From assembly GCA_964291285.2 (NCBI GenBank), contig OZ219786.1:64001-128000 (forward strand): 64,000 nt of DNA, in the 5' to 3' direction. Source of the DNA: Alphaproteobacteria bacterium (lineage in GTDB: Bacteria > Pseudomonadota > Alphaproteobacteria > Bin95). Below, one piece after another: positions 9,099 through 50,153 of the stretch. Positions within the stretch are counted from its first letter, which is position 1; each line of letters begins with the position of its first letter. Below the pieces are notes generated by a model, which saw nothing but the letters and a program-made list of their open reading frames with translations, had not been told where the DNA came from and did not search any database. A program made the translations under genes and the position numbers.

Positions 9099-10730
9099 TC
9101 AGTTGCGGCGTTCCAGCAGGCCGCGCGCGATGACGTGGGCCTGTATCTCGGCCGCGCCCTCGAAGATGTTGAGGATGCGGGCGTCGCAGAGGATGCGCCC
9201 GACCTCGTATTCCTGCGAATAGCCGTTGCCGCCATGCACCTGGACGGCATTGTCGGCGTTCGCCCACGCGGCGCGGGCGGCGAGCAGTTTGGCCATGCCG
9301 GCCTCGATGTCGCAGCGCCTGCCGCCGTCCTTCTCGCGCGCGGCGAAATAGGCGAGCTGGCGGGCGATCTGGGTCTCGACGGCCATCCAGGCGACCTTGC
9401 CGGCGACGCGCGGGAAGCCGAGGATCGCCTTGCCGAACTGCCTGCGCCCGGCGGCGTAGTCCAGCGCAAGCTCCATCGCGCGCTCCGCCACGCCCACCGA
9501 GCGCGCCGCGGTCTGGATGCGGGCGCTCTCGAAGGTCGCCATCAACTGCTTGAAGCCCTGGCCCTCCTCGCGACCGAGCAGGTTTTCCGTATCCACCTCG
9601 AAGCCGTCGAAGCCGATCTCGTATTCCTTCATGCCGCGATAGCCGAGCACGGGAATTTCGCCGCCGTCGATGCCGGGGTCCGGGAAGGGGTCGCCGTCAT
9701 CGCCGCGCGTCTTCGGTGCGAGGAACATGGAAAGGCCGCGATAGCCGGGCGTGTCGGGGTCGGTGCGGGCCAGCAAGGTCATCAGGTCGGCGCGCGCCGC
9801 ATGCGTGATCCAGGTCTTGGCCCCGCTGATCCGGTAGGTTTCGCCGTTGCGGACCGCGCGGGTCTTCACGCCGCCGAGGTCCGAGCCGACATCGGGTTCG
9901 GTGAACACCGCGGTCGGCAGCACGGCGCCGCTCGCAATGCCGGGCAGCCAGCGTTCCTTCTGCTCCTGCGTGCCGCCCATCCGTATCAGTTCGGCCGCGA
10001 TCTCCGATCGGGTGCCGAGCGAGCCCACGCCGATATAGCCGCGCGACAGCTCCTCCGTGACCACGCACATGGCCACCTTGCCCATGCCGAGGCCGCCCCA
10101 TTCCTCCGGCACGGTGAGCCCGAACACGCCCATCTCCGCCATGTCTTCGACGACCGCCATCGGGATGAGCTCGTCGCGGCTGTGCCAGCCGTGCGCCGGG
10201 CCGACGATGCGATCGTCCGCAAATCGCCGGAACTGGTCCCGCACCAGGGCGAGCGACTCGTCCTCCAGCCCGTCGGACGGCCTGTGGCCGTCGGCAAGCA
10301 GGGCGGCAATTTCCATGCGCGCGGCATTCGAATTGCCCTCGGCTGCCACGCGCTCGACGGCGGGAAGGCGCAGCGCAGCGCCGTCGATGCCGAGGTCCGC
10401 GGGCCGGACCACTTCTCCCTGCGAGACGGCGATGCCGCCCGCAAGCTGGGCCAGATACTCCCCGAACGCGGCCTGCAGGACGAACCGGTCGAGGTCCGTG
10501 AGACTGTCCGCCGCCTCCAGCCGCTGCGCCCAGCCCAGCATTTCCCGCAGGCCCGCCACGTAGGTCGCGGTCCAGGCGAAGCCGTGGGCGGCGAACTGGT
10601 CGCGCTCGAGCGCGGCGGGGTCGGTCCGGCCGCCGGCCTGCACGCGCGCCGCCACGCTGCCGCGCGCCTCTTCCAGATAGGACCGGGCCGCGCCGAGGGC
10701 CTCTTCGAGGAGGGGGATCGGGAGGGTCAT
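9099..10730 (-). CDS. mcd: (2S)-methylsuccinyl-CoA dehydrogenase-like acyl-CoA dehydrogenase (ethylmalonyl-CoA pathway)
   Basis: 543 aa with N-terminal extension QFAAHGFAW.ATYV and ACAD core AVFTEPDVGSDLG, GYRGMKEYE, IFEGAAEIQA. Confidence 0.8.
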   Translation of the reverse strand: MTLPIPLLEEALGAARSYLEEARGSVAARVQAGGRTDPAALERDQFAAHGFAWTATYVAGLREMLGWAQRLEAADSLTDLDRFVLQAAFGEYLAQLAGGIAVSQGEVVRPADLGIDGAALRLPAVERVAAEGNSNAARMEIAALLADGHRPSDGLEDESLALVRDQFRRFADDRIVGPAHGWHSRDELIPMAVVEDMAEMGVFGLTVPEEWGGLGMGKVAMCVVTEELSRGYIGVGSLGTRSEIAAELIRMGGTQEQKERWLPGIASGAVLPTAVFTEPDVGSDLGGVKTRAVRNGETYRISGAKTWITHAARADLMTLLARTDPDTPGYRGLSMFLAPKTRGDDGDPFPDPGIDGGEIPVLGYRGMKEYEIGFDGFEVDTENLLGREEGQGFKQLMATFESARIQTAARSVGVAERAMELALDYAAGRRQFGKAILGFPRVAGKVAWMAVETQIARQLAYFAAREKDGGRRCDIEAGMAKLLAARAAWANADNAVQVHGGNGYSQEYEVGRILCDARILNIFEGAAEIQAHVIARGLLERRN

Positions 10731-10812
10731 GGGTTCCGGCGGATGCCTCTTTCAGGTGACGCCGTTATAGCAAGACTATACACTTGCGGGCCGCAGTCCC
10801 GGTGCCGCACCC

Positions 10813-11772
10813 ATGCCGCTTCTCGACCCGAGCCCGACCTACAAGCCCTTCCGCTATCCGTGGGCTTACGATGCATGGCTCACGCAGCAGCGCATCCACT
10901 GGCTGCCGGAGGAAGTGCCGCTGTCCGACGACGTGGCCGACTGGCGGCGCATCCTCACCTTGGCCGAACGGAACCTGCTCACCCAGATCTTCCGCTTCTT
11001 CACCCAGGCGGATGTCGAGGTGAACAATTGCTACATGAAGCACTATGCCCGCGTCTTCGAGCCGACCGAGGTGCAGATGATGCTGGCAGCCTTCTCGAAT
11101 ATCGAGACGGTGCATATCGCCGCCTACAGCCATTTGCTGGACACGGTCGGGATGCCGGAGGTCGAGTATTCGGCCTTCATGCGCTACAAGGCGATGCGCG
11201 ACAAATACGACTACATGAAGCAGTTCGGCTCGGACTCGAAGGAAGACATCGCGCGCACGCTGGCGGTGTTCGGCGCCTTCACCGAGGGGGTCCAGCTTTT
11301 CGCCAGCTTCGCCATCCTGCTCAACTTCCCGCGCTTCGGCAAGATGAAGGGGATGGGGCAGATCGTGGCCTGGTCGGCGCGCGACGAGACCCTGCACACC
11401 GAGAACGCCATCCGGCTCTTCCGCACCTTCGTCGGCGAATATCCCGAAGTGTGGACCGATGCGCTCCGCCGGGACCTCGCGGACGCCTGCCGAACGGTGA
11501 TCGAGCATGAGGACGCCTTCATCGACCTCGCTTTCGAGATGGGCGGCGTCGAAGGCCTGGAGGCGGAGGAGGTGAAGTCCTACATCCGCTTCATCGCAGA
11601 CCGGCGGCTGGAACAGTTGGGCCTTGAGCCGATCTTCGCCGTGGCGGACAACCCGCTTTCCTGGATGGACGAGATGCTGAACGGCGTCGAGCACGCCAAT
11701 TTCTTCGAGAACCGCGCCACCGAATACGCCAAGGCCGCAACGCGCGGCAGCTGGGAAGAGGCGTTCGCCTGA
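10813..11772 (+). CDS. nrdB: Ribonucleotide reductase class Ia beta subunit
   Basis: YKPF.YPWA, HWLPEEVP, FFTQAD, ETVH..AYS, EG.QLF.SF, RDE.LH, NFFENRATEY. Confidence 0.95.
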   Translation: MPLLDPSPTYKPFRYPWAYDAWLTQQRIHWLPEEVPLSDDVADWRRILTLAERNLLTQIFRFFTQADVEVNNCYMKHYARVFEPTEVQMMLAAFSNIETVHIAAYSHLLDTVGMPEVEYSAFMRYKAMRDKYDYMKQFGSDSKEDIARTLAVFGAFTEGVQLFASFAILLNFPRFGKMKGMGQIVAWSARDETLHTENAIRLFRTFVGEYPEVWTDALRRDLADACRTVIEHEDAFIDLAFEMGGVEGLEAEEVKSYIRFIADRRLEQLGLEPIFAVADNPLSWMDEMLNGVEHANFFENRATEYAKAATRGSWEEAFA

Positions 11773-37130: not shown

Positions 37131-38713
37131 TCCGCATCATGGGCGAGACGCCGCATGCCGCCACGCTCCGCGATCTGGTGACGATGCGCGCTGCGCTCGG
37201 CGACAAGCCGCTGCTCATCTGCCGCGACGAGACCCTGACCTACGCCGATGCCGACCGGCTCTCGAACCGCGCCGCCAACGCACTGCTCCAGCGCGGCATA
37301 GGCAAGGGCGATGTGGTCGCGACCTTCATGTACAACTCGCTCGCGCAGGAGATCGTCTGGTTTGCCTGCGCCAAGATCGGCGCGGTTTACGCGGCCCTCA
37401 ATGTCTCGCTCGCGCGCGACGACCTCGCCTACAGCCTGAACGATACCGGCGCGAAGCTGCTGGTCGCGGACGACGAGCTGATGGATGTCTGCGAGGCGGC
37501 GGCGGACCGGTTTTCGTCTCCTCCGACAATTCTGGTGCATGGAGCGCCGCGCGCGGGATACGGCGCCTGGGAGGAGCTGCTGACAGGCTCGGAGGCGCTT
37601 CCCGAGGCGGAGGTGCGGCCGACCGACCCCGCGGCCATCGTCTATACGGGAGGCAGCACCTCCATGCCCAAGGGCGTGCTCGTCTCCCACCTCTATTACA
37701 TCGGCGCGGCCATTCGCTATGCGGAGATCGCCGAGGCCGGTCCCGACGACGTGCATTTTGCGAACTCGCATTTCTTCCATATCGGCGGCCAGCAATTCGG
37801 CGTCACCGGTCCGCTCTACACCGGCATGACCGGCGTGATGCACAAATGGTTCAGCGCCTCGCGCTACTGGGAGACTGTGCATCGACACGGCGCCACCATC
37901 ATCGACCCGCTGGGCACGATGATGTCCGTGCTGCTGCGCCGGCCGGAAAGCGGGCTCGACCGCTCGCACCGGGTAAAGGTCGGGGTGGGAATTGCGTCCG
38001 GCCAGGTGCGACGCGAGCTCCGCGACGAGTTCGAGGCCCGTTTCGGCATCCCGATGCTGGAGGTCTATGCGATGACGGAGATGGGCGTGCTGCTCTGCTC
38101 CGAGCGCCTGCACGACCGCAAGGCCGGCACCTGCGGCCGGCCGCACGGGTGGGCCGAAATCATGGTCGCAGATGCCGACGACAACCCGCTGCCTGCGGGC
38201 GAGACGGGCCAGCTGCTGCTGCGGCCCGGAGTGCCGAACACCTACATGATCGAGTACATCAACAAACCGGAGGCAACCCTCGCCGCCTGGCGGAATCTCT
38301 GGTACCACTCGGGCGATCTCGGCTGGCTCGACGAGGACGGCTATGTCCATTTCGTCGGCCGCGAGGCGCACTGGATCCGCCGGCGGGGCGAGAACGTCTC
38401 GGCCTTCGAGGTGGAGAAGGCGATCACGGCCCACGAGGCGGTGGTGGACTGCGCTTGCGTGGGCGTGCCCTCCGATCTCGGCGAAGAGGACATCAAGGCC
38501 TATGTGCAGGTCTCCGCGCCGGTCGAGCCGGGGGCGCTGGTCGAGTGGTGCCGGGAACGCATCGCCTATTTCAAGGCGCCGCGCTACGTCGAGTTCGTGG
38601 ACGAGTTCCCCCGCACGATGACCAAGAACGAAATCGCGCGCCACGAGTTGCGCGAACGCGGGATCGGTGCCTGCTGGGACGCGGAGGCGGATCGGATGGC
38701 GCCGGCTTCCTGA
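37127..38713 (+). CDS. Acyl-CoA synthetase (CaiC-like)
   Basis: YTGGSTSMPKGV, YAMTE, WYHSGD, IRRRGENVS. Confidence 0.9.
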   Translation: MIRIMGETPHAATLRDLVTMRAALGDKPLLICRDETLTYADADRLSNRAANALLQRGIGKGDVVATFMYNSLAQEIVWFACAKIGAVYAALNVSLARDDLAYSLNDTGAKLLVADDELMDVCEAAADRFSSPPTILVHGAPRAGYGAWEELLTGSEALPEAEVRPTDPAAIVYTGGSTSMPKGVLVSHLYYIGAAIRYAEIAEAGPDDVHFANSHFFHIGGQQFGVTGPLYTGMTGVMHKWFSASRYWETVHRHGATIIDPLGTMMSVLLRRPESGLDRSHRVKVGVGIASGQVRRELRDEFEARFGIPMLEVYAMTEMGVLLCSERLHDRKAGTCGRPHGWAEIMVADADDNPLPAGETGQLLLRPGVPNTYMIEYINKPEATLAAWRNLWYHSGDLGWLDEDGYVHFVGREAHWIRRRGENVSAFEVEKAITAHEAVVDCACVGVPSDLGEEDIKAYVQVSAPVEPGALVEWCRERIAYFKAPRYVEFVDEFPRTMTKNEIARHELRERGIGACWDAEADRMAPAS

Positions 38714-38962
38714 CGGCGAGGCCTCGCCGGTCGTCAAAGCGTCGCCGCCCAAGGTCGGTCCGGTCGTTATTCGCTGCTCTTTCGGTGCGTTCATTTGCCT
38801 GCAGGCGTCGGTTCTTTCTCCGGTTCTCTTCTTCCGGGACATCGCATTGTTTCCGTTGCGCCGGGATGAAACCGGGCCGGACAAGCAGAGAAGCGACGCT
38901 GGCGCGGAGACGATTGGGCGCTATGATTGCGGCAACGCAAGCGGCGGGATTGGCCGGCAAGC

Positions 38963-39700
38963 ATGAGACTGCGGATCAAGTTGGGACTGGCATTCCTGGC
39001 CGGCGTTGCCCTTTCTCTCGCGCTGGTCGTATATGCCGCACTCGACACGTTCGACCGCGAACTCCGGACCGTTAAGGCGTCGCACTTCGGTTTCACCGTC
39101 GATGAAATCGCCCATGCGGTTACGGTCCGCACGGATCTGGGCCTTCGGCTCGAAACGATCCCGGAAATTGCGGCATTGCTGGACCGTACCCAGGCAGCCG
39201 ACCCGGATATCGACCGGTTGCTGGTTTTCGGAGCGGACGGCCGGGTCGTATTCTCCACCGACCAGACAGACCTCGGGACCACGATCGATGCCGGCGACCG
39301 GACCGGGCGCTGGATTGAGGCCGATGAGCGGGCGGTGACCGTGGGCAGCCCGCTGATCAACAATTTCGGCAAGGTGGTCGGAGGCGTCCTGCTGGAGAGC
39401 GAAGTCCGGCACAGCGCGCCGCTGCGCGAACGCGCGGCCATTACCGTTTTCGGCATTGCCGCCGGCGTATTCGCGGTCTGCCTCCTGCTCGTTTTCCTGT
39501 TTGCCCGCTGGGTGCTGCATCCGGTTCTCGACATGCTGAGGCGAAGCGACGCTTCGTTGCTGGCGATGGCGGAGGGCCAGACGGTAGAGCTGGAGGGGGC
39601 GCCGCCGTCGCTTGCGGGCTTCCATGACACTGCGGCGAGAATGCTGGCCACGATGGACGACGATGCGCGCGAGGTCGACCGGCTGGACCGGATCGGATGA
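38963..39700 (+). CDS. Two-TM membrane protein with periplasmic sensor-like domain (paralog A)
   Basis: TM, DLGL.LE.I…DPDI…F, PLINNFGKVVGGV, TM; its stop overlaps the PP2C start. Confidence 0.75.
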   Translation: MRLRIKLGLAFLAGVALSLALVVYAALDTFDRELRTVKASHFGFTVDEIAHAVTVRTDLGLRLETIPEIAALLDRTQAADPDIDRLLVFGADGRVVFSTDQTDLGTTIDAGDRTGRWIEADERAVTVGSPLINNFGKVVGGVLLESEVRHSAPLRERAAITVFGIAAGVFAVCLLLVFLFARWVLHPVLDMLRRSDASLLAMAEGQTVELEGAPPSLAGFHDTAARMLATMDDDAREVDRLDRIG

Positions 39701-42621
39701 CGGGCATGGGCCGGGTCTCGCGCATGATCTGCCTGAAAGCCTGCGCCGCCGCCATCGTGGTTGCGCTGTTGCAGGCGGTGCTGACGACCGCAGCGTTCCA
39801 CTGGTGGGCCGAGGAGCCGCTGACGGGCGAGCTCGACCGCAAGGCGCTCGCAGTCGGCCAGGCTATGAAGGCCGAGATGGAGCGTGCCGCCCGGGTCGGC
39901 ATCCCGCTCGAGGAGCTCCGGGGAGTCGAGCCATTCTTCCAGCGCTTCCTCGACGACAACCCGGACATACGCTTCATCGCAATGACCACGCCGGACAAGG
40001 AGCCGGTCTATTTCAGCGGCGTCGCGCGCGCCCGGCTGGAGAAAGTCCTTGAGTCGGCGGGGACCGCATTTGAGGAGCGCCGCCTGGCGGGAGGTATGAC
40101 GGAAGCCCGGAGCCGTCATACCTTCGGCGACCTTTCTGTCGATATCCGTCCGATAGGTCCGGCGGACTATCCACTCGCCCTCCTGCATGTCGCGGTCGAA
40201 AAGGGCTTCGTGACGCATGTGCTGCGTCGCAATTGGCCGGGCTTTGCCATTGCGGGCGTGGTCGGCATCGTCGTCGGGCTGCTGTGCACGGTCGTTCTGA
40301 CATTGCGGGTCGGCCGGCGGTTGCAACGATTCGATAACGGAATCGCGCAAGCGGCCGGCGGCCACCCGGTGCTGCTCGCGGATCTGGGGCAGCGGGACGA
40401 AATCGGCTATGCCGCCCGCGCATTCAATGCGGTGCTGCACGGCCTCCGCACGCGATATGACGAAACCCTGGATCAGGCGGAGGACGCCCGGGACGCCGCG
40501 GTCGGCCGGACGGTGCGGGATTCGCTGGAACGCATTCGCCGGGGGCTGGTCCAGAGGCTGGAGCCCGCCTTCCGCGACATTCCCCCGACGCCGCCCACCG
40601 CGGTCGGCCGCTTCGGCCGGAATGTCTCGATACGCCTGCGTCTGACGGCAATCATCAGCCTTGCGGGGCTTCTGCTGGCGATAGGCCTCGGCTATGGCAG
40701 CATCGTGCGTGAGCGCCTTCTTGCCGAAAGCTATAACGAAGACCGCCAGACGGCATTGAAGACCGTCTGGAAGACCCTGTCGCAGCGCGAGACGGACACG
40801 GTCGCACGCCTGCTGGCCCCGTTGCGCGCCAACGAAGACGTCCGGGCCGCGCTTCTCGCCGGCGATACACTGCTTGCCGCGCGCCTGATCGAGGATCTTT
40901 CCGTGGGGAGCGGAATTGAACGGCTCGTGACGTTCGACCCCTCGGAAGGGGCAGGGGGGCGCCTATTCGTAGGCCGCAACCCCCTGTCGCCGCGCGTGGC
41001 CAAGCGAATCGTCGATACCGGGACGCGGGCAAGCGGCGGCGACATCGACGCCGACGGACAACCGGTCTGGACGGTTGCGGAGGCCCTCGGAGACCCGGAC
41101 CGGGGCGATGTGTTGATCGTTGCCGCAAGCCTCCCGCTTGCCTCCGCGGTGCAGGAAGCGGGGGCGGTCCTCGGTGGAGAAGCCTTTCTGGTCGGGAGCG
41201 AGGGCGGACTGATCTTCGGCACCAACCCGCCGCTCTGGCAAGGTCTGGACCAGAACAGTGCGGACTATGCCACGACGACAACGAACATCCCGGCCCTGAA
41301 CGGCGGGCGCCTTTCCGGCCTGCATGTCGTCTCCGATGTCAGCGAACTCGCCGCGCGGCAGCAGGCGCTGCGTATTGCCTATTTCGGAGCAGCGGCAGTT
41401 TTCGCCTGCATTGCCCTTTGGGCGCTCTATGCGAATCTGAGCGGCTCCCTGCAGCCGCTCGACCGTGTGATCGGCGTACTGGAGGCGCTCTCCGACGGCC
41501 GTCGCGGCGTGTGGCTCGAACAGGAGGCCGGCAGGGACGAAATCGCCCGCATCGCCAGGGCGGTCGAGGCGTATCGAAGTTCCCTGGGCGAGGTCGAACG
41601 CCTGTCAGCTGAGCGCCGCCGGGCGCAACGGCGGCGCGAACGCTTCCTGCGCCAGCAGATGGCCGGACTGACGTCGGCTGTGGGCGCGGAGGCCCGCCAG
41701 GCCGTTACGGACCAGCTCGCCGAGCTTGAACGGGAAGGCGCCAGCGACGAGTTCGAAGCTCTCACGCTCGTGTTCGAACAGATGGCGCAGCGCATTCGCG
41801 AACAGCATGGACGCCTGACCGAGCTGGTCGAGGAACTGCGCGAGGCGCTCAAGCACAAGGAGCGCCTGGTCGCGATCGAGCGCGAGCTGTCCATCGCGCA
41901 CGACTTGCAACTCTCGGTGCTGCCGCGCGAGACGCCGCCGCAGCGTACCGTCGAGATCGCGGCGCAGATGCTCCCGGCCAAGGAGGTCGGCGGCGACTTC
42001 TACGACTATTTCGCCATCGACGAACAGCGCATCGGACTCGTCATCGCGGATGTCTCGGGCAAGGGCATCCCGGCCGCCTTCTTCATGCTGATTGCGCGCA
42101 CCCTGCTCAAGGCTACCGCTCTGATCGGCGAGTCGCCGGGCCGGGTGCTGACCGCGTTGAACGACATGCTGGAGGCAGAGAACGAGCAGATGATGTTCGT
42201 GACCGCCTTCTATGCAGTCGTGAATACCGAAACCGGCCATGTGACCTTCGCCAACGCCGGACATAATCCGACTTACCGGATCGACGGTGGGGGGCAGCTA
42301 TCGACTCTGCCGATGGATCCCGGCCTGGCGCTCGCCATCATGCCGGGATTCGATTTCGAGGAGGGAGAGACGACGCTGGCGCCGGGCGACACGCTGTTCC
42401 TCTACACGGACGGCGTGAACGAGGCCTTCAACGAAGCGGGCGAACAATTCGGCGAACCGCGCCTGGAAGCGGAACTGGCGGCCCATGCAGACGCCTCGCC
42501 GGCCATCATTTGCGATGCGATGCGCGCCTCGGTCGAGGAATTCTCGACAGGAGTCGAGCAGAGCGACGACATCACCACGGTGGCGGTGCGCTATCTGGGA
42601 AACGGTCCGGCCGCGTCCTGA
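39697..42621 (+). CDS. Membrane sensor PP2C (SpoIIE/RsbU-type) phosphatase with two sensor-HAMP modules
   Basis: PAKEVGGDFYD, IADVSGKG.PAA, NAGH, LYTDGVNEA, QSDDIT; HAMP motifs RDEIG and RDEIA; four TMs. Confidence 0.9.
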   Translation: MTGMGRVSRMICLKACAAAIVVALLQAVLTTAAFHWWAEEPLTGELDRKALAVGQAMKAEMERAARVGIPLEELRGVEPFFQRFLDDNPDIRFIAMTTPDKEPVYFSGVARARLEKVLESAGTAFEERRLAGGMTEARSRHTFGDLSVDIRPIGPADYPLALLHVAVEKGFVTHVLRRNWPGFAIAGVVGIVVGLLCTVVLTLRVGRRLQRFDNGIAQAAGGHPVLLADLGQRDEIGYAARAFNAVLHGLRTRYDETLDQAEDARDAAVGRTVRDSLERIRRGLVQRLEPAFRDIPPTPPTAVGRFGRNVSIRLRLTAIISLAGLLLAIGLGYGSIVRERLLAESYNEDRQTALKTVWKTLSQRETDTVARLLAPLRANEDVRAALLAGDTLLAARLIEDLSVGSGIERLVTFDPSEGAGGRLFVGRNPLSPRVAKRIVDTGTRASGGDIDADGQPVWTVAEALGDPDRGDVLIVAASLPLASAVQEAGAVLGGEAFLVGSEGGLIFGTNPPLWQGLDQNSADYATTTTNIPALNGGRLSGLHVVSDVSELAARQQALRIAYFGAAAVFACIALWALYANLSGSLQPLDRVIGVLEALSDGRRGVWLEQEAGRDEIARIARAVEAYRSSLGEVERLSAERRRAQRRRERFLRQQMAGLTSAVGAEARQAVTDQLAELEREGASDEFEALTLVFEQMAQRIREQHGRLTELVEELREALKHKERLVAIERELSIAHDLQLSVLPRETPPQRTVEIAAQMLPAKEVGGDFYDYFAIDEQRIGLVIADVSGKGIPAAFFMLIARTLLKATALIGESPGRVLTALNDMLEAENEQMMFVTAFYAVVNTETGHVTFANAGHNPTYRIDGGGQLSTLPMDPGLALAIMPGFDFEEGETTLAPGDTLFLYTDGVNEAFNEAGEQFGEPRLEAELAAHADASPAIICDAMRASVEEFSTGVEQSDDITTVAVRYLGNGPAAS

Positions 42622-43619
42622 CCCCACTGCCGGTCGAGGCTTGTAGCAAGAATGTGCTCGACCAGGGCCTCCGAGGATATGCCTGCACGCGCCGCGCTTT
42701 GCGCGAAGGCCATCGCACCGCCGATCGAGCAGGCGAGATTGAACTCGAGGAAGGCATGTCCCGAGGGACCGAACCGGAAATCGCAGCGCAGATAGTCGTA
42801 TGGCTCCACCGCTCTCGCGAACCGCAGGGCATCTTCAACAATGGGCTTGAGCCAGGGCTCATCACCGGGGAACTCGCGTGTGAGGCCGGGTTCCAGCTTC
42901 CGTTTCTGACGGTGGGTGAACAGCCCGTAAGGACTGTCGCATGTCTGGGTAGCAGGGGGCAGGGCCACCGGCCCGTTATCGCCTACCAGGATCGGCACCG
43001 TCACGTCGAAGTCGCCGAAGACCTGCTCGACAAGGCACTCGTCGATGGTGGCCCCGAGAGCCGCGATCCGCGGTTCGAGAGCACCGAAATCCTCTTGCGC
43101 GCTCGAGGCGTCGATGCCTGTCGATGCGGCGCCAAAACGCGGCTTGGCGACATAGGGCCCGTCGAAGTCCGGCTTCCGCACCGGGCCGTTTCCCGCGAAC
43201 ACTTTCCCGTCCGGCGCCGGTATGCCGAGCGCCCGCGCCGCCAGCTTGCTCAGCCACTTGTCCTCAGCGAGCGCGCGAATGTTCGCCGGTGCGCCCATAC
43301 AGGCGATGCCGGCTTTCGCCGCCATAGCGGAGACGTAGATCTCGGAATTCCGGAACGGCGCAATGTTGTAGAGCGAGAAAACGTAATTCCGGCCTTCGAA
43401 GGCCTGGGGTACGACGTCGAGATCGGAACTGCTGTCGACATCCAGGCCGAGACCGTTTCGCAGCACATCCCAGATCTCATACTGGTAGGCCGGCTGCACG
43501 CCGTAATCCGGATGGATGTCTGGAGGCCTGGGTGTGTCGGGTGACGGCGCATGAGGCGCCAGATACAGGATTTTGAGCGCGGCGCGGCGTTTGTCGTCCA
43601 GACGTTTCAGGGCGATCAA
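42591..43619 (-). CDS. D-Ala-D-Ala ligase-like ATP-grasp protein (paralog 1)
   Basis: AEDKWLSK, YVAKPRFGAASTGI, DYLRCDFR, FLEFN. Confidence 0.8.
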   Translation of the reverse strand: MIALKRLDDKRRAALKILYLAPHAPSPDTPRPPDIHPDYGVQPAYQYEIWDVLRNGLGLDVDSSSDLDVVPQAFEGRNYVFSLYNIAPFRNSEIYVSAMAAKAGIACMGAPANIRALAEDKWLSKLAARALGIPAPDGKVFAGNGPVRKPDFDGPYVAKPRFGAASTGIDASSAQEDFGALEPRIAALGATIDECLVEQVFGDFDVTVPILVGDNGPVALPPATQTCDSPYGLFTHRQKRKLEPGLTREFPGDEPWLKPIVEDALRFARAVEPYDYLRCDFRFGPSGHAFLEFNLACSIGGAMAFAQSAARAGISSEALVEHILATSLDRQWGQDAAGPFPR

Positions 43620-44629
43620 GAATCGGCTCCGGTCTTTATGAATTGGGCGAAGCGCAGGATTTCCATGGGCGGATACACCTTCAGCTTGTGCGCCGTTTCC
43701 ATGTTGACCACGAAGGAGAACCGGGAGAGCGTTTCGATGGGGATGTCGCCGGGGTCCTTGCCGCCGGTGAGAATCTGCTCCGCCTTGAAGGCCGCGAATT
43801 GCCCGACCGCGTAGAGCGGGCTGACGAGCCCCGTCATGCAGTGCTGCCGGATCAGGGTCTCCACGCCGCAGAAGGTCGGCAGGCCGAGTTCAGTTGCAGT
43901 GCGGGTCACCAACTCGGCATGGGCGCCGAAGAAGTTGGACGGCGGGATATAGAGGAAATCGACTCCGGCCTGTTTCAGGCGCCGGAGCGCCGGCTCTATC
44001 TGGGCCGGGTCCCGTTCGACCTTGGGCTCCGTCGGGCTGTCGGAGACGAATTCGATGCCGGATTCCTCCACCAGCGTCCGCATGGAGGCCTCGGTGCGGC
44101 GCTGTGCGCCCGAGCTCTTGTCGTAGAGCATGCCGAGCTTCTCGAAGGGCATGTAGGTGCGCATCGCGTTGAGGCGCACGAGGTTCGAAACGACGTGCAT
44201 TGCCCCGGTGATGTTGCGCTTCGAAAGCATCGGCGCCGCCGGGTCCGGAGGCTGGGGCACCAGTTTCGACCGGGCAGGAAACGAGACCATCGAAAACACG
44301 ACGGGAATGTCGAGGACATGCTTCTGGGGATCGGCCTCTTCAAGCCGCCCGACGACCGCGCGCGTCACCGAGGTTGTCTGGGTATAGACGAGGTCGGGCT
44401 TGAGCGCCTTGATTTCCTCGACATAGCCCGGGAGGCGGGACCGGTCGTTCTCCATGTCGCGAAGGACGAAGTTGGCATCGACGCCGTTTGCCGTCAGGTA
44501 GTCGCGAAAGCCGTCATCCGCGCCTGACCCGGCGCGATGCACGATCATGTAGATGGTGAAGGGGTCGGCTTGGGAAGCCGGGGCCGCCACGGTCGAGATG
44601 GCGAACGCCAGCAATAGCACTCGTAACAT
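43616..44629 (-). CDS. ABC-type periplasmic substrate-binding protein (no cognate permease nearby)
   Basis: Signal peptide; KPDLVYT..T, IPVVF..V..P, VGQFAA.KAEQIL.G..PGDIPIET, VNMETA..L. Confidence 0.82.
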   Translation of the reverse strand: MLRVLLLAFAISTVAAPASQADPFTIYMIVHRAGSGADDGFRDYLTANGVDANFVLRDMENDRSRLPGYVEEIKALKPDLVYTQTTSVTRAVVGRLEEADPQKHVLDIPVVFSMVSFPARSKLVPQPPDPAAPMLSKRNITGAMHVVSNLVRLNAMRTYMPFEKLGMLYDKSSGAQRRTEASMRTLVEESGIEFVSDSPTEPKVERDPAQIEPALRRLKQAGVDFLYIPPSNFFGAHAELVTRTATELGLPTFCGVETLIRQHCMTGLVSPLYAVGQFAAFKAEQILTGGKDPGDIPIETLSRFSFVVNMETAHKLKVYPPMEILRFAQFIKTGADS

Positions 44630-44721
44630 GGGAGGCGGGTCCGCTGCGTTGCCGGTGGAAGGGTTGACAGCTATCATACGCTGGTTCCCTGTAATTTCGA
44701 CACACATCTGGCCAATTTGGG

Positions 44722-45732
44722 ATGCTCGAGCTGTTACAAATCGGCCCGGACCGGCGTGAGGAGCTGGATATCCTGTTTCTCGCCAAATATGCGGAGGACT
44801 GGACCGAACCGCCGCCCACAGTGCATCCGCGTTACGGGCGCGAGCTCTACACCAAGTTCGAGGTACTTTCGGTCCTGCGGGGCCTGGCGCGCTCTGTGGA
44901 GCCCTGCGCCAGCCTCGAGGCCTTCGAAGAACGCATGCGCCGCAAGCCGGCTCCCGACTACATCTTCCAGATCTACAACCGGGAGCCCGTACGCAACCCC
45001 GAGATACTGGTGTCCGCACTCTGCGCGCGCACGGGCGTTCCCTATCTTGGCAGCCCGCCCAATGTGCGCGCCATGGCAGAGGACAAGTGGATTACCAAGC
45101 TGATGGCCCGGGCCGCGGGCCTGTCGGTGCCCGAAGGCGCCGTGGCGGTCGCCAGGGCCGATCTTGACGAACCGCCCGGTTTCGACGGGCCTTATTTCGT
45201 CAAGCCCCGCTTCGGCGCCAACTCCGAAGGTGTCGATGAAGGCTCGATCTGCGATGGCTGGGAAGAAGCGCGGTCACGGGCATCGGCTCTGCTGGCGGCC
45301 GGTGAGGAGGCGCTGATCGAGACGCTGGCGCCCGGCCTCGACGTGACCGTGCCGGTGCTGGGCGGGCCTCTTGCGCTTCATCCCGTCGCCAACCATTCCG
45401 AACTGCGCGAAGGCGTGCAGACCGAAGGGCAAAAGCGCTTTCTGGAGCCCGGAAAGCGGGGCGAGCCGTTCGACGACGCCGCGCTTTGCGAAGAACTCCG
45501 GGAGGCGGCGGTTGCGTTCGCGAAGCTGGTGCAGCCCTGCGACTATCTCAGGGTCGATTTCCGGGTCGCGCCGGACCGGTCCTTCCGCCTGCTCGAGTTC
45601 AATGTCACCTGCAACCTGGCGACGGTCATGTCCATGAATGTCGGCGCAGGCGCCGCGGGCGTGTCGCATGCGGCGATGATCGAGCATTTCCTCTGCTACA
45701 GCATGCAGCGTCAGGGGCTGCTGGCGGCATGA
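44722..45732 (+). CDS. D-Ala-D-Ala ligase-like ATP-grasp protein (paralog 2)
   Basis: AEDKWITK, YFVKPRFGANSEGV, DYLRVDFR, LLEFN. Confidence 0.8.
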   Translation: MLELLQIGPDRREELDILFLAKYAEDWTEPPPTVHPRYGRELYTKFEVLSVLRGLARSVEPCASLEAFEERMRRKPAPDYIFQIYNREPVRNPEILVSALCARTGVPYLGSPPNVRAMAEDKWITKLMARAAGLSVPEGAVAVARADLDEPPGFDGPYFVKPRFGANSEGVDEGSICDGWEEARSRASALLAAGEEALIETLAPGLDVTVPVLGGPLALHPVANHSELREGVQTEGQKRFLEPGKRGEPFDDAALCEELREAAVAFAKLVQPCDYLRVDFRVAPDRSFRLLEFNVTCNLATVMSMNVGAGAAGVSHAAMIEHFLCYSMQRQGLLAA

Positions 45733-46481
45733 GGCTGCTGATTGTCCTGAACGGCGCTTTCCTTTGCGCCTTCGCGGTGACGATGGCGCTGATGATCCTG
45801 CTCAACCAGCAGAAGTTCTCCGACATCCTGCGCGGGCTGGACGATTCCCGGGTTTCGGTCGTCACGCTCGACACGTCCCGCCGGCTGCGGCAGGCCGTGG
45901 ACCTCGGGCTGCCTCTCAAGGACATCGCCGAGAGCCGGGCCATGGTGGAGGCGCTGGTCGCGGAGTATCCGGAACTTCAGTCCGTCAGCATTTTCGATGC
46001 GGGGGGCAGGCTGCTTGTGCATGGCGGCAACGAGTTGAGTGGCGGAGAGTCGGAGGCGCCCCGGGCGTGGAGCGCCGGCAACCGGGAGGCGGCCGGGGAG
46101 GTCTGGCGCATCGAGGACCCGGAATCCTTCGTGGTCGGCGCGCCCGTCATCAACAATTTCGGGAAGCTCGAGGGAGGGGTGGCGGTTCGCTACAGCAAGG
46201 CGCGCTTCAGCAGCATCGTTGAAGGATTGACGACCGAGCTCCTGGAAGCCGCGGTTCTCATCTTTATTGCCAGCGGACTGCTGGCGGTGCTGGGAACCGC
46301 CGCCGCGCTCTGGAGATTGACCAGGACCGCCCGTTATCTGCGTCAAAGTGTTGAAAACCTTCTGAAGCAGGATTCTGGCGAAACGCCGGCGGATACCGAC
46401 CTCGCCGAATTCGTTGGCTACAGCGCTTCCGTGCGGGAAACGGCGGCGACGCTGGCGGATGCCGAAAGGAACGTGCGGTGA
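45729..46481 (+). CDS. Two-TM membrane protein with periplasmic sensor-like domain (paralog B)
   Basis: TM, AVDLGLPLKDI…YPEL…IFD, PVINNFGKLEGGV, TM; ATGA coupling to the ATP-grasp gene. Confidence 0.75.
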   Translation: MRLLIVLNGAFLCAFAVTMALMILLNQQKFSDILRGLDDSRVSVVTLDTSRRLRQAVDLGLPLKDIAESRAMVEALVAEYPELQSVSIFDAGGRLLVHGGNELSGGESEAPRAWSAGNREAAGEVWRIEDPESFVVGAPVINNFGKLEGGVAVRYSKARFSSIVEGLTTELLEAAVLIFIASGLLAVLGTAAALWRLTRTARYLRQSVENLLKQDSGETPADTDLAEFVGYSASVRETAATLADAERNVR

Positions 46482-48508
46482 CCCCCGACCGCGACGACCG
46501 CCGACGGGCCCCGACCCTTGCGGGCATCGGCATCCGCATCGGTTTCGTCGCCGTGGTGGCTCTCGTGGCCGCCAATGCGTTCTTGGCCTGGATCGCGCTC
46601 GGCGCGGTCGAGACGAGGCTGGAGCCCGTCATCAAGGACAAGGCGCACGTCCTGGCCCGGTCGATTGCCAACGACCTCTACACGGCAGTGCGCCTCGATA
46701 TTCCGGTCCAGGGGCTGAGAGGTGTCGACGCCTATCTGGACGACCTGCTGACGGACCATCCGGAGGTTGCCTATCTCGCCGTGACCGACGCCGGGGGCAA
46801 GGTGCTGTTCTCGGCGGAGGCCAGCGGCGATGTAGAGGTCAGTTCCTACCCATTGGCCGCGAATGCCGGCACTTTCGTTTCGATCGGCTCCGACTACAAC
46901 ATCGCGCATCCCCTGGTTCATGGCGGCAAGCAGGTCGGACACGCAATGGTCGGGATAGACCGGCGCTATGTCCGCAACACCATGGCCGGCATTTTCACCG
47001 ATATCGGCATTTCGCTGTGTGTCGCCATCCTGATCGTTCTCGAACTCACCCTGCTGGTGCTGTCGCTTACGGTCGCCCGGTCCATCGGCCTGATGAGGCG
47101 GCTGATGCACGCCGTCAGCGAAGGGGACTTCTCGGCTTCCATAACCACGCGCGGACGGGACGATCTGGCCCGGGTCATCGATGCGATGAATGGCATCAAT
47201 ACCGAGATCAACCGGCGTTTCCGCGCATTGGTAGCCACCGGCGGCGCCGTCGAAAGGCTTCGGGAGGGGCGGGTGTTCGCCGAGGCGGGCGCCTACCGGC
47301 CCGTGCAGGTGCTGCGCGCCGGAGACGTGCAGTATCCGCTGTTCTTCTTCATTTTCGGCGTCGAGCTGTCGCGTCCGTTCTTCCCCCTCTTCGTGCGCGA
47401 CCTTTACGATCCCGCGCTCGGCATCGACGCCTCGATCGCGATCGCCATGCCGATGTCGGTCTGGGTGGTCGCGATGCTGTTCACGACGCCGCTCGCGCCG
47501 ACGCTGATCCGGCGCCTCGGCACGCGCAACACGCTGCTGCTCGGCATGGCGCCTACGAGCGTCGGCCTCATCGCGACGGCTTTCGCGACCGGGTTCATCG
47601 AACTCATTGCGTGGCGTTGCGTGACGGCGGCGGGCTTCGGCCTCGTCACCGCTGCAATTCTCGTCCGGCTCGCCATCACGGCGCCGGAACGGCGGCGCGC
47701 GCTCAATATCGGCGTGTTCGTCACGGCCACGGGCGGCGGCAGCATCTGCGCGACCGCAATCGGAGGCATCCTCGCCGAACGGCTGGGGTACGAGAACACC
47801 TTTATCGTCGGGGCGACTATCGTCTTCGTCGCCATGACGATCACCTACGGCTTCCTGTCGTCGGAGGAAGGGGTCGGGTCCAGCATTGGCACGCCGACCC
47901 AACGCAGGCGGCTGGGAATTTACGGCAGTCCGAGATTCATGACATTCATGGCCCTCTCGGCCCTGCCGTCACGGACCGTGCTCACCGGCTTCCTGTTCTT
48001 CCTGGTGCCGCTTTATCTCGATTCGCTCGATTTCGGCGGAGCGGCCATCGGGCGCACCATGATGGTCTATTTCCTGGTGCTGCTGGTCATGAACCAGGCG
48101 GCGGCGCTGATCGCCGACAGGTTCCAGAACCACGGCATGCTGATCGTCGTTGGCGGGATCTCGGTTGCAGCGGGCTGCCTGCTGTTCGTTTCCACGGCCG
48201 ACGCCTTGCTGCTGGCCTGCGGCGTTGCGCTGATCGGGCTCGGCCAGTCCTTCGTGATGACACCGCAAGTGGCTGTGCTGCCGACTTATTTCAGGTCCGA
48301 AACGGAGGCCTTTGGCACCGGCCCGGTAACGGCGGCGTTCCGGGTGGTGGAGCGCGCCGGCAGCATTGCCGGCCCCCTTCTTGCCGGGAGCATCGTTGCC
48401 TTCGCCGGGCTGCAGCATGCGGGCCGGCTGCTCGGCTACGGCATAGCGGTCACGACCCTGTTTCTGGCCCTGCTGCTTGTCGTTGGCGTGTTCACCCGCC
48501 GGCGCTGA
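46478..48508 (+). CDS. MFS transporter fused to N-terminal periplasmic sensor domain and HAMP
   Basis: TM-periplasmic-TM, HAMP (SEGDFS…RDDLA), then ~12-TM MFS (LIRRLGTR, GGILAERLGY, IADRF). Confidence 0.85.
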   Translation: MTPDRDDRRRAPTLAGIGIRIGFVAVVALVAANAFLAWIALGAVETRLEPVIKDKAHVLARSIANDLYTAVRLDIPVQGLRGVDAYLDDLLTDHPEVAYLAVTDAGGKVLFSAEASGDVEVSSYPLAANAGTFVSIGSDYNIAHPLVHGGKQVGHAMVGIDRRYVRNTMAGIFTDIGISLCVAILIVLELTLLVLSLTVARSIGLMRRLMHAVSEGDFSASITTRGRDDLARVIDAMNGINTEINRRFRALVATGGAVERLREGRVFAEAGAYRPVQVLRAGDVQYPLFFFIFGVELSRPFFPLFVRDLYDPALGIDASIAIAMPMSVWVVAMLFTTPLAPTLIRRLGTRNTLLLGMAPTSVGLIATAFATGFIELIAWRCVTAAGFGLVTAAILVRLAITAPERRRALNIGVFVTATGGGSICATAIGGILAERLGYENTFIVGATIVFVAMTITYGFLSSEEGVGSSIGTPTQRRRLGIYGSPRFMTFMALSALPSRTVLTGFLFFLVPLYLDSLDFGGAAIGRTMMVYFLVLLVMNQAAALIADRFQNHGMLIVVGGISVAAGCLLFVSTADALLLACGVALIGLGQSFVMTPQVAVLPTYFRSETEAFGTGPVTAAFRVVERAGSIAGPLLAGSIVAFAGLQHAGRLLGYGIAVTTLFLALLLVVGVFTRRR

Positions 48509-50153
48509 CCATCGCTTCGATCAGGACGGGACCTGAGCCCGCAAGAGCATCGCGGTAGGCCTTGCGGAAAGCGGCTGGCGTTTCGGCCCGCAAGGCGGCC
48601 ATGCCGAAGCCTTCCGCAAGCCGCGTGGCGTCGATGGGGGGATCGCGAAAATCCATCCCTATCGGCGCGTCATTGTCGTGAAACGCCTTCATCCTGTCCT
48701 TCAGAATGCGGTAGCCGCCATTGTTGGCGATAACGAAAACGACCGGCAGCCGGGCATTGACGGCGGTCCAGAGCGCCTGGATCGAATACATGGCGCTGCC
48801 GTCGCCGATAAGCGCCACCGTGCGCCGGGCGGGCTGTGCGATCTGCACGCCGACGGCCGCCGCAATGCCCCATCCGATGCCGCCAGAGACATTGCCGAAA
48901 TACCCATTCGCATCCCGGAACGGTAGGAAGTCCAGAAGACGCGCGCCGGTGGTGATGCCCTCATCGACGACAATGCCGTCTTCGGGCAGCTCCTCGGCAA
49001 GGCACTTGCAGAGCCAGGCCGGCGGGATGGGCCCTGCGTCTTCCTGTACCTGCGCCACGGCGTCTGCCGCCTTCCGCCGGTTCGCGGTCCAATTGCTTTC
49101 CGCCAGCGCGGCGATGCGCTCCTGCCGGTCCGTGCCGAGCTTGTCCTCCAGCACCGGATTCAAGGCTGCAAGCGTCTCCCTTACACCGCCCAGCGCGGCG
49201 ATCTCGGCGGGATAGTTCTTGGCGAGCTCCCAGTCCCTCAGACCGATCTGGATGACCGACATATGGTCGGGCAGCGGGTCCGTTTCGCTCCACACCGACA
49301 TGCGCAGAAAGTCGGCTCCGAGTCCGACGATCAGGTCGTAGGGCGCAAGCGTCCGACGGACCTGGGGCTGACTGCGCGTGAGCGCCCCCATGAAGCAAGG
49401 GTGCTCCGAGGGAAAATGCGCCCCCTGGGGCACACTTTGCTGATAGACGGGCGCGCCCAGCAATTCGGCGAACCGGGCGGCAGCATCGAGCGCGTCGCCG
49501 GTGGCCGTCTCATGGCCGGCGAGGACAACCGGATTTGCAGCGGCAGCGATGCGGTCGGCCATCGCCGCCAGCGCTTCATCCGAAGGACGGGTGCGGGCAT
49601 CGACCCGGGTGGCCCGGCCAAGATCGATGGCCTCGTGGCGGTTCAGGATGTCTCCCGGCAGGGAGATGAACACGGGCCCCGTCGGCGGCGTTGTCGCAAC
49701 CTTGGCGGCGCGGCGTAAAATGCGGGGCAGATCCTCGATCCTGGAGACTTCGACGGCCCATTTGACTACCGGCTCGGCAATCGGGGTGAGCGGGGCATAG
49801 AGGAGCGGTTCCGTCAGCCCGTGGCCCTGTTCCTGCTGGCCGGCGGTCACGATGATCGGCGAGCCGCTTTGCGAGGCGGTGTAAAGCGCGCCGATGGCAT
49901 TCCCCAATCCCGGCGCGACATGAACATTGCAGGCCGCCAGCTTGCCGGACGCGCGCGCATAGCCGTCGGCCATGGCAACGACCACCGACTCCTGCAGTCC
50001 AAGCACGTAACCGAGGTCGGTCTGCTCGGTCAGCGCGTGCATGATCGGCAATTCCGTCGTGCCCGGATTGCCGAAAAGATGCGTGATGCCCTCGTCCTTG
50101 AGCACGGTAAGGAAGGCGCTGCGGCCGCTGATCGTGTTGGAAGGGGATGACAT
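48492..50153 (-). CDS. Benzoylformate decarboxylase-like ThDP enzyme
   Basis: FGNPGTTELP, LQE..VVAMADGYA, HVAPGLGNA, GDGSAMY.IQALW…NNGGY. Confidence 0.88.
   Translation of the reverse strand: MSSPSNTISGRSAFLTVLKDEGITHLFGNPGTTELPIMHALTEQTDLGYVLGLQESVVVAMADGYARASGKLAACNVHVAPGLGNAIGALYTASQSGSPIIVTAGQQEQGHGLTEPLLYAPLTPIAEPVVKWAVEVSRIEDLPRILRRAAKVATTPPTGPVFISLPGDILNRHEAIDLGRATRVDARTRPSDEALAAMADRIAAAANPVVLAGHETATGDALDAAARFAELLGAPVYQQSVPQGAHFPSEHPCFMGALTRSQPQVRRTLAPYDLIVGLGADFLRMSVWSETDPLPDHMSVIQIGLRDWELAKNYPAEIAALGGVRETLAALNPVLEDKLGTDRQERIAALAESNWTANRRKAADAVAQVQEDAGPIPPAWLCKCLAEELPEDGIVVDEGITTGARLLDFLPFRDANGYFGNVSGGIGWGIAAAVGVQIAQPARRTVALIGDGSAMYSIQALWTAVNARLPVVFVIANNGGYRILKDRMKAFHDNDAPIGMDFRDPPIDATRLAEGFGMAALRAETPAAFRKAYRDALAGSGPVLIEAMVSAGG

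Follow-up and report, generated by a model that had tools for sequence, protein, structure and literature searches.

HAMP domains are known to link sensors to kinases, cyclases or chemoreceptor tips, and binding-protein-dependent receptors are known from LuxP-LuxQ and TorT-TorS. Secondary transporters may depend on a binding protein as well, as the tripartite TRAP and TTT systems do. Genes for solute-binding proteins (SBPs) that adjoin the genes of the kinases they activate are an established pattern (PMC11113362), and PMC7096432 treats trigger transporters and transporter-sensor fusions, namely LysP-CadC, DcuB/DctA-DcuS, UhpC-UhpB and CbrA. In this study, we analyzed a locus of seven genes, designated A to G, at positions 38963-48508 of a 64,000-nt stretch (the window) of contig OZ219786.1 from an Alphaproteobacteria bacterium (GCA_964291285.2). 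The locus combines an SBP with membrane sensors whose outputs are a major facilitator superfamily (MFS) transporter and a PP2C phosphatase, and with two ATP-grasp ligases that resemble D-alanine--D-alanine ligase (Ddl).

The comparison of this locus with its relatives points, at the sequence level, to a conserved core that comprises an SBP of family PF04392, a sensor-HAMP-MFS fusion and a second, output-less copy of the Cache-HAMP sensor, either separate or fused. The PP2C appears as a frequent partner, and the ligases of the C/E type appear to be an accessory of one sub-clade. Tentatively, we favor the reading that the locus encodes a binding-protein-coupled, HAMP-gated MFS transporter with a parallel PP2C output and with ligases acting on the cargo.

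The seven genes lie in three units. In the first, on the plus strand, A (38963-39700) encodes a small output-less sensor of 245 amino acids (aa) with two transmembrane (TM) helices, and B (39697-42621; 974 aa) encodes a double-sensor HAMP PP2C phosphatase. The second unit, on the minus strand, comprises D (43616-44629), an orphan periplasmic SBP, followed by C (42591-43619; 342 aa), the first Ddl-like ATP-grasp ligase. The length of D, 337 aa, was counted from the signal-peptide Met; the mechanical open reading frame (ORF) extends to 45019. The third unit, again on the plus strand, consists of E (44722-45732; 336 aa), a second Ddl-like ATP-grasp ligase and paralog of C, F (45729-46481; 250 aa, two TM helices), another small output-less sensor, and G (46478-48508; 676 aa), the sensor-HAMP-MFS fusion. 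The initial annotation had described seven genes in three units with overlapping start and stop codons, and this was confirmed: 4-base stop/start overlaps were read at all four junctions within the units, namely ATGA (A/B), TTGA (D/C), ATGA (E/F) and GTGA (F/G). The convergent genes B and C overlap by 31 bases. The pairing of each large protein with a small output-less paralog was also borne out (A with B, F with G). For B, described as a sensor-HAMP-PP2C, the HAMP and PP2C parts stood, but the single periplasmic module did not, as hydropathy placed four hydrophobic helices ahead of the HAMP, which correspond to two modules.

The sensor parts of A, F, B and G were compared with one another. 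A is 30% identical to F across the entire length (E 5e-19), and similarity is also seen among the N-terminal part of B, that of G and the small sensor F (E 1e-6 to 7e-6). Profiles were built over two rounds from six-frame ORFs, and those for the small sensors, the B N-terminus and the G N-terminus converged on one family. The assignment of A, with a TM helix, an sCache-like periplasmic domain, a second TM helix and a HAMP-like tail, is based on its ORF, its hydropathy, its identity to F and its membership in the small-sensor alignment A2. Pfam gave nothing above cut-off in A or F, and none of 26 small sensors reached the gathering score of a Pfam Cache family; weak dCache_1 matches were found in 10 of the 26, the best at E 6.6e-6. 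The HAMP of B scored 32.2 bits, above cut-off, and that of G 24.1 bits, just below the cut-off of 25. In the AlphaFold2 (AF2) model of F (confidence score, pLDDT, 92.5), a long TM/periplasmic helix is followed by a PDC-type alpha/beta domain, a long second membrane helix and a two-helix HAMP-like tail. With this model, Foldseek returned the WalK model 9a5d as the best match (TMq 0.65), then KinD 4jgo, CitA 1p0z, DcuS 3by8 and WalK 4ywz, and Tlp3 was also found. In the ESM Atlas, F matched mostly unnamed clusters. Because of the predicted fold and these matches, we read A and F as Cache-HAMP receptors that lack an output. Together, the profiles and the F model assign each of the five periplasmic modules (A, F, two in B and one in G) to one TM-sCache-TM-HAMP family.

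The small-sensor profile was searched against 1.84 billion representative proteins, resulting in 2197 clusters at E <= 1e-3, 1175 at E <= 1e-10 and 268 at E <= 1e-30. Among the best 150 clusters, 138 were at most 306 aa long. The 12 longer proteins, together with P0241 (306 aa), were scanned with Pfam, and MFS_1 was present in 6 of these 13, with other outputs in none. Fusions of small sensor (stub), sensor and MFS, 907-999 aa long, were found in P0244 (999 aa), P0271, P0329 and P0333, and, as far as sequences can tell, they argue for physical association of these parts.

The same profile matched in 30 of 400 sampled Pseudomonadota genomes (E <= 1e-8). We studied 17 regions from 13 of these genomes; the other 17 genomes had mostly weaker matches, in frames of about 480-810 aa. 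A sensor-MFS was present in 10 of the 17 regions, each time next to a PF04392-type SBP and together with a second sensor module that was separate in five (L114, L116-L119) and clearly fused in four (L120, L122, L125, L128). The family is not rare, given the 1175 small-sensor clusters and a sensor-MFS in 9 of the 13 genomes examined. PP2C was found in 5 of the 17 regions, and ATP-grasp only in L128 and L129, where it adjoins the sensor-MFS and the SBP and is equally far from C/E and from housekeeping Ddl. This different Ddl-like ligase, joining the same kind of transporter in another lineage, would tie ligation to the transporter cargo. In four regions from gamma/beta-type genomes (L121, L123, L124, L126), the gene for a PF04392 SBP immediately precedes that for an sCache_3_2-HAMP(-PAS-GAF) hybrid histidine kinase, with no stub; the kinase-output relatives of the sensor family carry Pfam sCache_3_2 above cut-off. 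Such SBP-kinase pairs within the same sensor family fit an SBP that acts as the input.

For the ATP-grasp seed, an alignment of relatives yielded 69 genome loci, which were then analyzed by profile scans and tblastn. The gene calls at these loci are approximate, combining a caller guided by third-position GC (GC3) with profile scans of all six-frame ORFs. All seven genes in the same order were found at 12 loci (L001-L010, L012, L013). At one of these, from a metagenome-assembled genome, the SBP frame of the cluster is broken into pieces (L002:9507-10004); another contig of the same assembly (L018:8894-11011) holds an intact SBP (89% identical) and an E-type ligase (82%) next to a LysR regulator, with no sensors. 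L011 and L057 have in common a variant with an additional copy of both the small sensor and the sensor-MFS and with a separate sensor-PP2C of 719 aa. Beside the cluster in L011, a gene for a circularly permuted ATP-grasp (CP_ATPgrasp_1/2) and an Alpha-E domain gene (L011:12202-15303) are probably unrelated to the system. A four-gene operon in the order small sensor, sensor-MFS, ATP-grasp and SBP was found in Burkholderiales (L016 and L023, with L022 and L025 as cut contigs) and in Myxococcota (L015, L019, L020, L026), the latter with an additional pair of sensor-MFS and SBP. A Porin_O_P gene lies inside three of the Myxococcota clusters (L015, L019, L026). Other variants were L021 (Zavarzinia, with a PP2C unit), L024 and L058.

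The ATP-grasp tree (IQ-TREE) and the SBP tree were quick searches, with support given as SH-aLRT. In the ATP-grasp tree, the C/E-type ligases form one clade of 43 rows (SH-aLRT 94), of which 38 are accompanied by a sensor-MFS and an SBP, three by an SBP only and two by neither (L014, L017). The other two ATP-grasp clades occur in quite different gene contexts. In the sister clade (20 rows), from Rhizobiales/Rhodospirillales (L030, L032, L044, L049, L052, L054; ligase at about 10000-11000), the neighbors are a Phosphonate-bd ABC transporter, DUF364/DUF4213/DUF2478 "metal chelation" proteins, cobW and a nitroreductase, and in some cases NifH or Nitro_FeMo-Co. In L039, L042, L051 and L061 (Firmicutes, Bacteroidota and Massilia), the ATP-grasp relative (about 10000-11000) lies beside a tyrosine recombinase and a convergent gene (to about 13300) for a 756-806 aa protein with Pfam TPR repeats or nothing; L061 adds an epsilon/zeta toxin-antitoxin pair. 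This context looks like mobile-element cargo. In the SBP tree, all SBPs encoded next to a C/E-type ligase fall into a single clade (21 rows, SH-aLRT 96), and the kinase-linked SBPs stand on a long separate branch. The tree is consistent with a single gain of the ligase, which is not proof, as related sequences share labels.

The third seed was the sensor-MFS. A word-indexed search returned 69 related proteins, most of them 66-96% identical and a few distant, and a metagenome scan with the 8-sequence alignment A5 resulted in 10 loci, nine with ATP-grasp and nine with the SBP. All seven genes were present in L074 and L078. In L075, on a contig that contains Ns, tblastn recovered C (cut by the contig end), D, E, F and G. 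L076 and L077 have the L011-type arrangement, L079-L082 the order small sensor, sensor-MFS, ATP-grasp and SBP (L080 starts within the MFS gene), and L083 has small sensor, sensor-MFS and SBP plus PP2C, with no ligase. Altogether, 32 loci carried a sensor-MFS ORF; with it, the SBP was found in 30, the small sensor in 30, PP2C in 20 and the ligase in 31, of which 23 hold it by construction, the ligase being the seed. The two loci missing the SBP (L057, L076) both end at a contig edge, and those missing the small sensor were L058 and the contig-end locus L080. Additionally, a divergent gene for a dCache_1-adenylate/guanylate cyclase-cNMP-binding protein (842-881 aa) lies beside the module at L016:3781-6426, L023:3930-6458, L079:509-3037 and L081:5312-7843, which are all of the Burkholderiales-type four-gene modules with enough flank; a dCache-cyclase gene is also near the module in L024. 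This neighbor suggests a cyclic-nucleotide output that replaces PP2C in the Burkholderiales type.

The initial annotation had proposed to check, by a gene-neighborhood search, whether all seven families co-occur across Proteobacteria. The three seeds recovered the association in about eight lineages, Myxococcota, Burkholderiales and Zavarzinia among them, but the core is narrower than seven families. The ligases count as accessory because they are absent from 8 of the 10 sensor-MFS regions of the small-sensor seed and from L083, and B is a secondary fusion, as described below. The idea of one indivisible seven-gene system was thus abandoned.

G matched MFS_1 with 94.9 bits (cut-off 33.4) over residues 289-617, which takes in both six-helix halves, with about 11 hydropathy peaks in residues 288-669. 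From hydropathy, Pfam and full-length relatives, its sensor and HAMP were assigned to residues 1-270 (46478-47287) and its MFS part to residues 271-676 (47288-48508); the Pfam matches of G comprise only MFS_1, LacY_symp and HAMP. D matched PF04392 (ABC_sub_bind) with 56.7 bits (cut-off 25.9), and its hydrophobic N-terminus ends in ASQA, as a signal peptide. Its relatives in the PDB are 3lkv, 6hni and 3lft, and L-Trp, L-Tyr and L-Phe are the ligands that Table 1 of PMC10443332 gives for solved PF04392 proteins. D is the only PF04392 match in the genome. No ABC permease or ATPase gene lies alongside it; of 28 BPD_transp_2 matches, the nearest one on contig C2 is at C2:540157, compared with C2:107646 for D. 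The description of D as an orphan binding protein was upheld by its being the sole PF04392 match and by the distance of all 28 BPD_transp_2 matches.

In B, the first sensor occupies residues 1-310, the second sensor and the HAMP residues 311-640, and the SpoIIE domain residues 775-966 (42019-42594). The SpoIIE domain matched PF07228 with 179.4 bits (cut-off 25, E 9.6e-53) over profile positions 1-191 of 192, and the genome contains no other PF07228 match. For B(1-310), the best match beyond its own clade was the sensor of the second sensor-MFS upstream of the 719-aa PP2C at L011, L057, L076 and L077, with 62-68 bits compared with about 32 bits for other sensor-MFS proteins. The best match of B(311-640) was the N-terminal sensor of the 719-aa PP2Cs at the same four loci. 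Because of these two matches, B is best regarded as a secondary fusion in which the membrane-transport domain was lost, and this presumed origin provides further fusion evidence, of another kind, for joint action of these receptors. B was also tried as an equivalog of SiaA (NF038263), which was rejected at 82.7 bits against a cut-off of 700. In DNA run X4, several other contigs match a 34-base stretch in the PP2C domain of B (41974-42007), where the depth rises to 254 compared with about 110 elsewhere; loose ends diverge on either side, and the stretch may be a conserved PP2C motif common to other organisms of the sample or a short repeat.

The genome encodes the parts of a partner-switching network, all of them unlinked to the locus, on other contigs and among unrelated genes. 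They are two RsbW-like kinases (HATPase_c_2 proteins of 143-144 aa), a 135-aa STAS protein (L133:3652-4059) and a 477-aa protein with two STAS domains. The two RsbW-like kinases (C3:1673094-1673525 and C3:2027519-2027953), the single-domain STAS protein (C3:910151-910558) and the double-STAS protein (C1:904867-906300) each stand solitary among metabolic genes in this genome (G000) and form no operon. Since B is the only SpoIIE-type match in the genome, it probably sets the phosphorylation state of these dispersed STAS/RsbW-like proteins.

The two ligases share 41% identity (E 2e-76), and E falls into a separate deep subclade of the ATP-grasp tree. Pfam gave a weak Dala_Dala_lig_C match for both, and the two NCBIfam Ddl models, with cut-offs of 245.65 and 243, scored 39.4 and 35.9 bits for C and 41.9 and 51.5 bits for E. 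Against the PDB, the ligase-family profile matched Ddl chains (E 5e-17, positions 100-339). The AF2 model of C (pLDDT 91.5) was compared by Foldseek, and all matches at ranks 1-50 were Ddl or VanA, with 327-362 aligned columns, TMq of about 0.7 and about 20% identity. The ATP, Mg and catalytic positions of Ddl are kept in C as K121, K159, E198, K239, R278, D280, E292 and N294 (C numbering). Where Ddl has Tyr216, the aligned residue of the ligase family is an invariant Arg (R240), and the loop aligned with Ser281/Leu282 differs and contains an invariant Cys297; Tyr216 and Ser281/Leu282 are substrate-site residues in E. coli DdlB numbering. C and E diverge from each other in precisely these substrate-aligned loops and in the N-domain. 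From sequence and model, C and E look like active small-molecule ligases, and they probably differ in specificity. A true D-alanine--D-alanine ligase was rejected, as both proteins score far below the Ddl cut-offs, the substrate-site residues are not kept and a separate Ddl-like match exists elsewhere in the genome. A RimK-like protein ligase was also rejected, given that Foldseek ranks 1-50 were all Ddl/VanA small-molecule ligases.

In the mechanism that we tentatively favor, D would bind a small, probably amino-acid-like solute in the periplasm, and loaded D would dock on the sCache-type periplasmic domains of membrane receptors built from a single sensor family. Receptor one would consist of the stub F and of G, with F supplying the second Cache/HAMP protomer, so that one HAMP bundle is formed per single MFS domain. 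This two-protomer unit would explain why the sensor-MFS proteins of the small-sensor seed all have a second module and their kinase-type relatives have none. The HAMP would then gate solute transport by G, with uptake as the favored direction. Receptor two would be formed by the stub A and B, and the same input would let the SpoIIE-type PP2C set the state of STAS/RsbW-like proteins. In the cytoplasm, C and E would ligate the transported solute, which would lead to its trapping or assimilation. Uptake is tentatively favored because binding proteins serve import, to our knowledge in every known transport context, and because most relatives have no synthase. Of all this, the analysis establishes the genes and their folds, the paralogy, the co-occurrence, the natural fusions and the orphan status of D and B; docking, pairing of the sensors, gating, transport direction, ligase substrates and PP2C targets are proposed. 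A wider claim, which we regard as doubtful, is that these proteins represent a third class of binding-protein-dependent secondary transporter. In such a class, an MFS carrier would have its own N-terminal Cache-HAMP module as a docking and gating device, an obligate stub would complete the HAMP bundle, the same SBP would drive PP2C (a kinase in relatives) through sister receptors, and the ligases, where present, would trap the solute and make uptake effectively ATP-driven.

Several results weigh against the favored mechanism. In the PDB, the MFS domain matched the antiporters NorA and VAChT (E about 2e-4), too weakly to decide between uptake and export, and the NCBIfam matches of G mix exporters with organic-anion importers. 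We know of no precedent for an MFS transporter that depends on a binding protein. The targets of the PP2C are not linked to the locus. In the window's own clade (11 loci), the flanks are syntenic as well, so conservation there is not independent and only distant lineages count; the truly independent lineages are few, about eight, plus nine sampled genomes. The ligase is missing from 8 of the 10 sensor-MFS regions of the small-sensor seed, and the ligase step is therefore outside the general mechanism.

The model of the initial annotation, which we consider unlikely, is an autocrine or quorum-type loop in which C and E make dipeptide-like signals, G exports them, and D recaptures them and presents them to the sensors, with feedback on both the exporter and the PP2C. 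It is in keeping with the biosynthetic role of Ddl-type ATP-grasp ligases, whose ATP, Mg and catalytic positions C retains, with DHA1-type antiporters (NorA, VAChT) as the weak MFS matches, and with the Porin_O_P gene inside Myxococcota clusters (L015, L019, L026). The single clade of SBPs linked to C/E ligases is also what would be expected if specificity and product had co-evolved, and the differences between C and E in the loops aligned with the Ddl substrate loops leave room for two signals. However, the window holds one SBP for two ligases, and the core occurs without a ligase in 8 of 10 small-sensor-seed regions and in L083, where a synthase would be lacking. Still less likely, in our judgment, is that the MFS domain serves as a co-sensor (transceptor) instead of a bulk transporter and reports, by its transport cycle or its occupancy, how much cargo is available to the Cache/HAMP heteromer and thence to the PP2C, like UhpC with UhpB or DcuB/DctA with DcuS. 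Trigger transporters and transporter-kinase fusions are established (PMC7096432), and L011, L057, L076 and L077 do have a second sensor-MFS directly upstream of the sensor-PP2C, a pair that in the window is fused, with the membrane domain lost. That loss also speaks against a co-sensor, as B would work here without the MFS part. PP2C accompanies the sensor-MFS at 20 of 32 loci, but 12 of 32 lack it, and the neighbor in Burkholderiales is a dCache-cyclase of another sensor type; moreover, the MFS domain of G retains a full-length MFS_1 match.

Two further explanations carry very little weight. ATP-grasp enzymes that modify proteins exist (RimK, TTL), and C and E could add, for example, an amino acid to the cytoplasmic tail of a receptor, giving an adaptation like receptor methylation; each ligase paralog shares a unit with its own sensor pair. 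We consider this very improbable: Foldseek ranks 1-50 for the C model are all Ddl/VanA small-molecule ligases, most core relatives have no ligase, the Zavarzinia locus L021 has two sensor sets and one ligase, and an alignment of the small sensors revealed no conserved C-terminal acceptor motif. The notion that the seven genes are neighbors by descent only, with no common function, is the most improbable of all. The flanks are indeed conserved too in the window's own clade of 11 loci, but in Myxococcota, Burkholderiales, Zavarzinia, the L011 type, L024, L058 and L083, and also in genomes G136, G317, G353, G244, G304, G155, G355, G192 and G008, the association is found again with other flanks. 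The 4-base overlaps inside the units and the existence of gene fusions also speak against it, and chance co-location was rejected because of the recurrence with different flanks, the overlaps and the fusions.

The remaining features of the region were surveyed around the locus. Its flanks contain unrelated metabolic and cell-wall genes (CoA-transferase, acyl-CoA synthetase, TPP enzyme, lytic transglycosylase and RlpA-like protein), and the GC content is 0.63-0.68 along the whole region, with no compositional break. In a scan of positions 38600-48700, two sigma-70-like sites were found where 1.5 were expected by chance, which is not above chance; both fall in the divergent intergenic region between D-C and E-F-G (44630-44721). 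The scan also gave 11 terminator-like sites compared with 7.3 expected, and neither count is informative. Three metatranscriptome runs, each from a different study and labeled sponge metagenome, "organism A" or marine metagenome, contain contigs that match parts of all seven genes at 90-95% identity, and single contigs span the A/B, C/D and E/F junctions. These contigs are a weak hint at expression of the locus, as they show neither strand nor transcript, may stem from DNA carry-over, and are uninformative in bins without cover.

The gene arrangement appears to be undescribed. In the full-text literature, with subscription journals and supplementary files outside the search, we found no description of this ATP-grasp/HAMP/MFS/PP2C/SBP arrangement or of a HAMP-MFS sensor fusion. 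Among the papers found to name PF04392, none deals with signaling clusters, and the review PMC8050422 mentions neither ABC_sub_bind nor MFS nor ATP-grasp. If the favored mechanism is true, HAMP domains control a transporter directly, and neither this nor an SBP-dependent MFS carrier was found in print. Through the ligand of D, two orphan Ddl-like ligases would become tractable, and, with B as the sole PF07228 phosphatase of the genome, the locus would provide a defined way into a partner-switching network. Cultured carriers of the four-gene module are Cystobacter fuscus, Corallococcus species such as C. coralloides, and Zavarzinia.

Several parts of the locus have described counterparts. C and E share with Ddl and VanA the whole-length fold and the ATP, Mg and catalytic residues, but differ in R240, in the loop bearing Cys297 and in their low model scores. 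The F model has the topology and fold of the input modules of WalK, CitA, DcuS and KinD (TM helix, single Cache/PDC domain, TM helix, HAMP), in which a kinase follows the HAMP, whereas here the protein ends (A, F) or continues into an MFS (G) or a PP2C (B). Like RsbU, SpoIIE and SiaA, B carries a full-length PF07228 domain that is preceded by a HAMP and a coiled region, and the genome encodes STAS proteins and RsbW-like kinases; in contrast, its input consists of two tandem Cache modules plus a stub, and the partners are not encoded nearby.

The likeness extends to the way in which the parts are combined. The SBP-dependent receptors AgtS and AruS have adjacent sbp genes (PMC11113362), and D, which has no ABC partner, likewise adjoins receptors with periplasmic domains. 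Compared with LuxP-LuxQ, TorT-TorS, AgtS and AruS, the SBP here belongs to PF04392 and the outputs are a transporter and a PP2C; the binding of D to the sensors is what we infer. In LysP-CadC, DcuB/DctA-DcuS, UhpC-UhpB and CbrA, a transporter and signaling domains act jointly, in CbrA within one polypeptide (PMC7096432), and G likewise joins them in a single chain. However, the SLC5 transporter of CbrA precedes a kinase, whereas in G the sensor and HAMP precede the MFS, so that signaling seems to feed into the transporter. The sensor-MFS further differs from the trigger transporters in being accompanied by an obligate stub paralog and an SBP. With TRAP and TTT there is no homology, as a Pfam scan of A, F and G gave no match to DctQ/DctM or TctB/TctA, and the small subunit here is a Cache-HAMP protein; yet these systems likewise combine three parts, namely a binding protein in the periplasm, a small membrane protein and a large secondary carrier with 12 TM helices.

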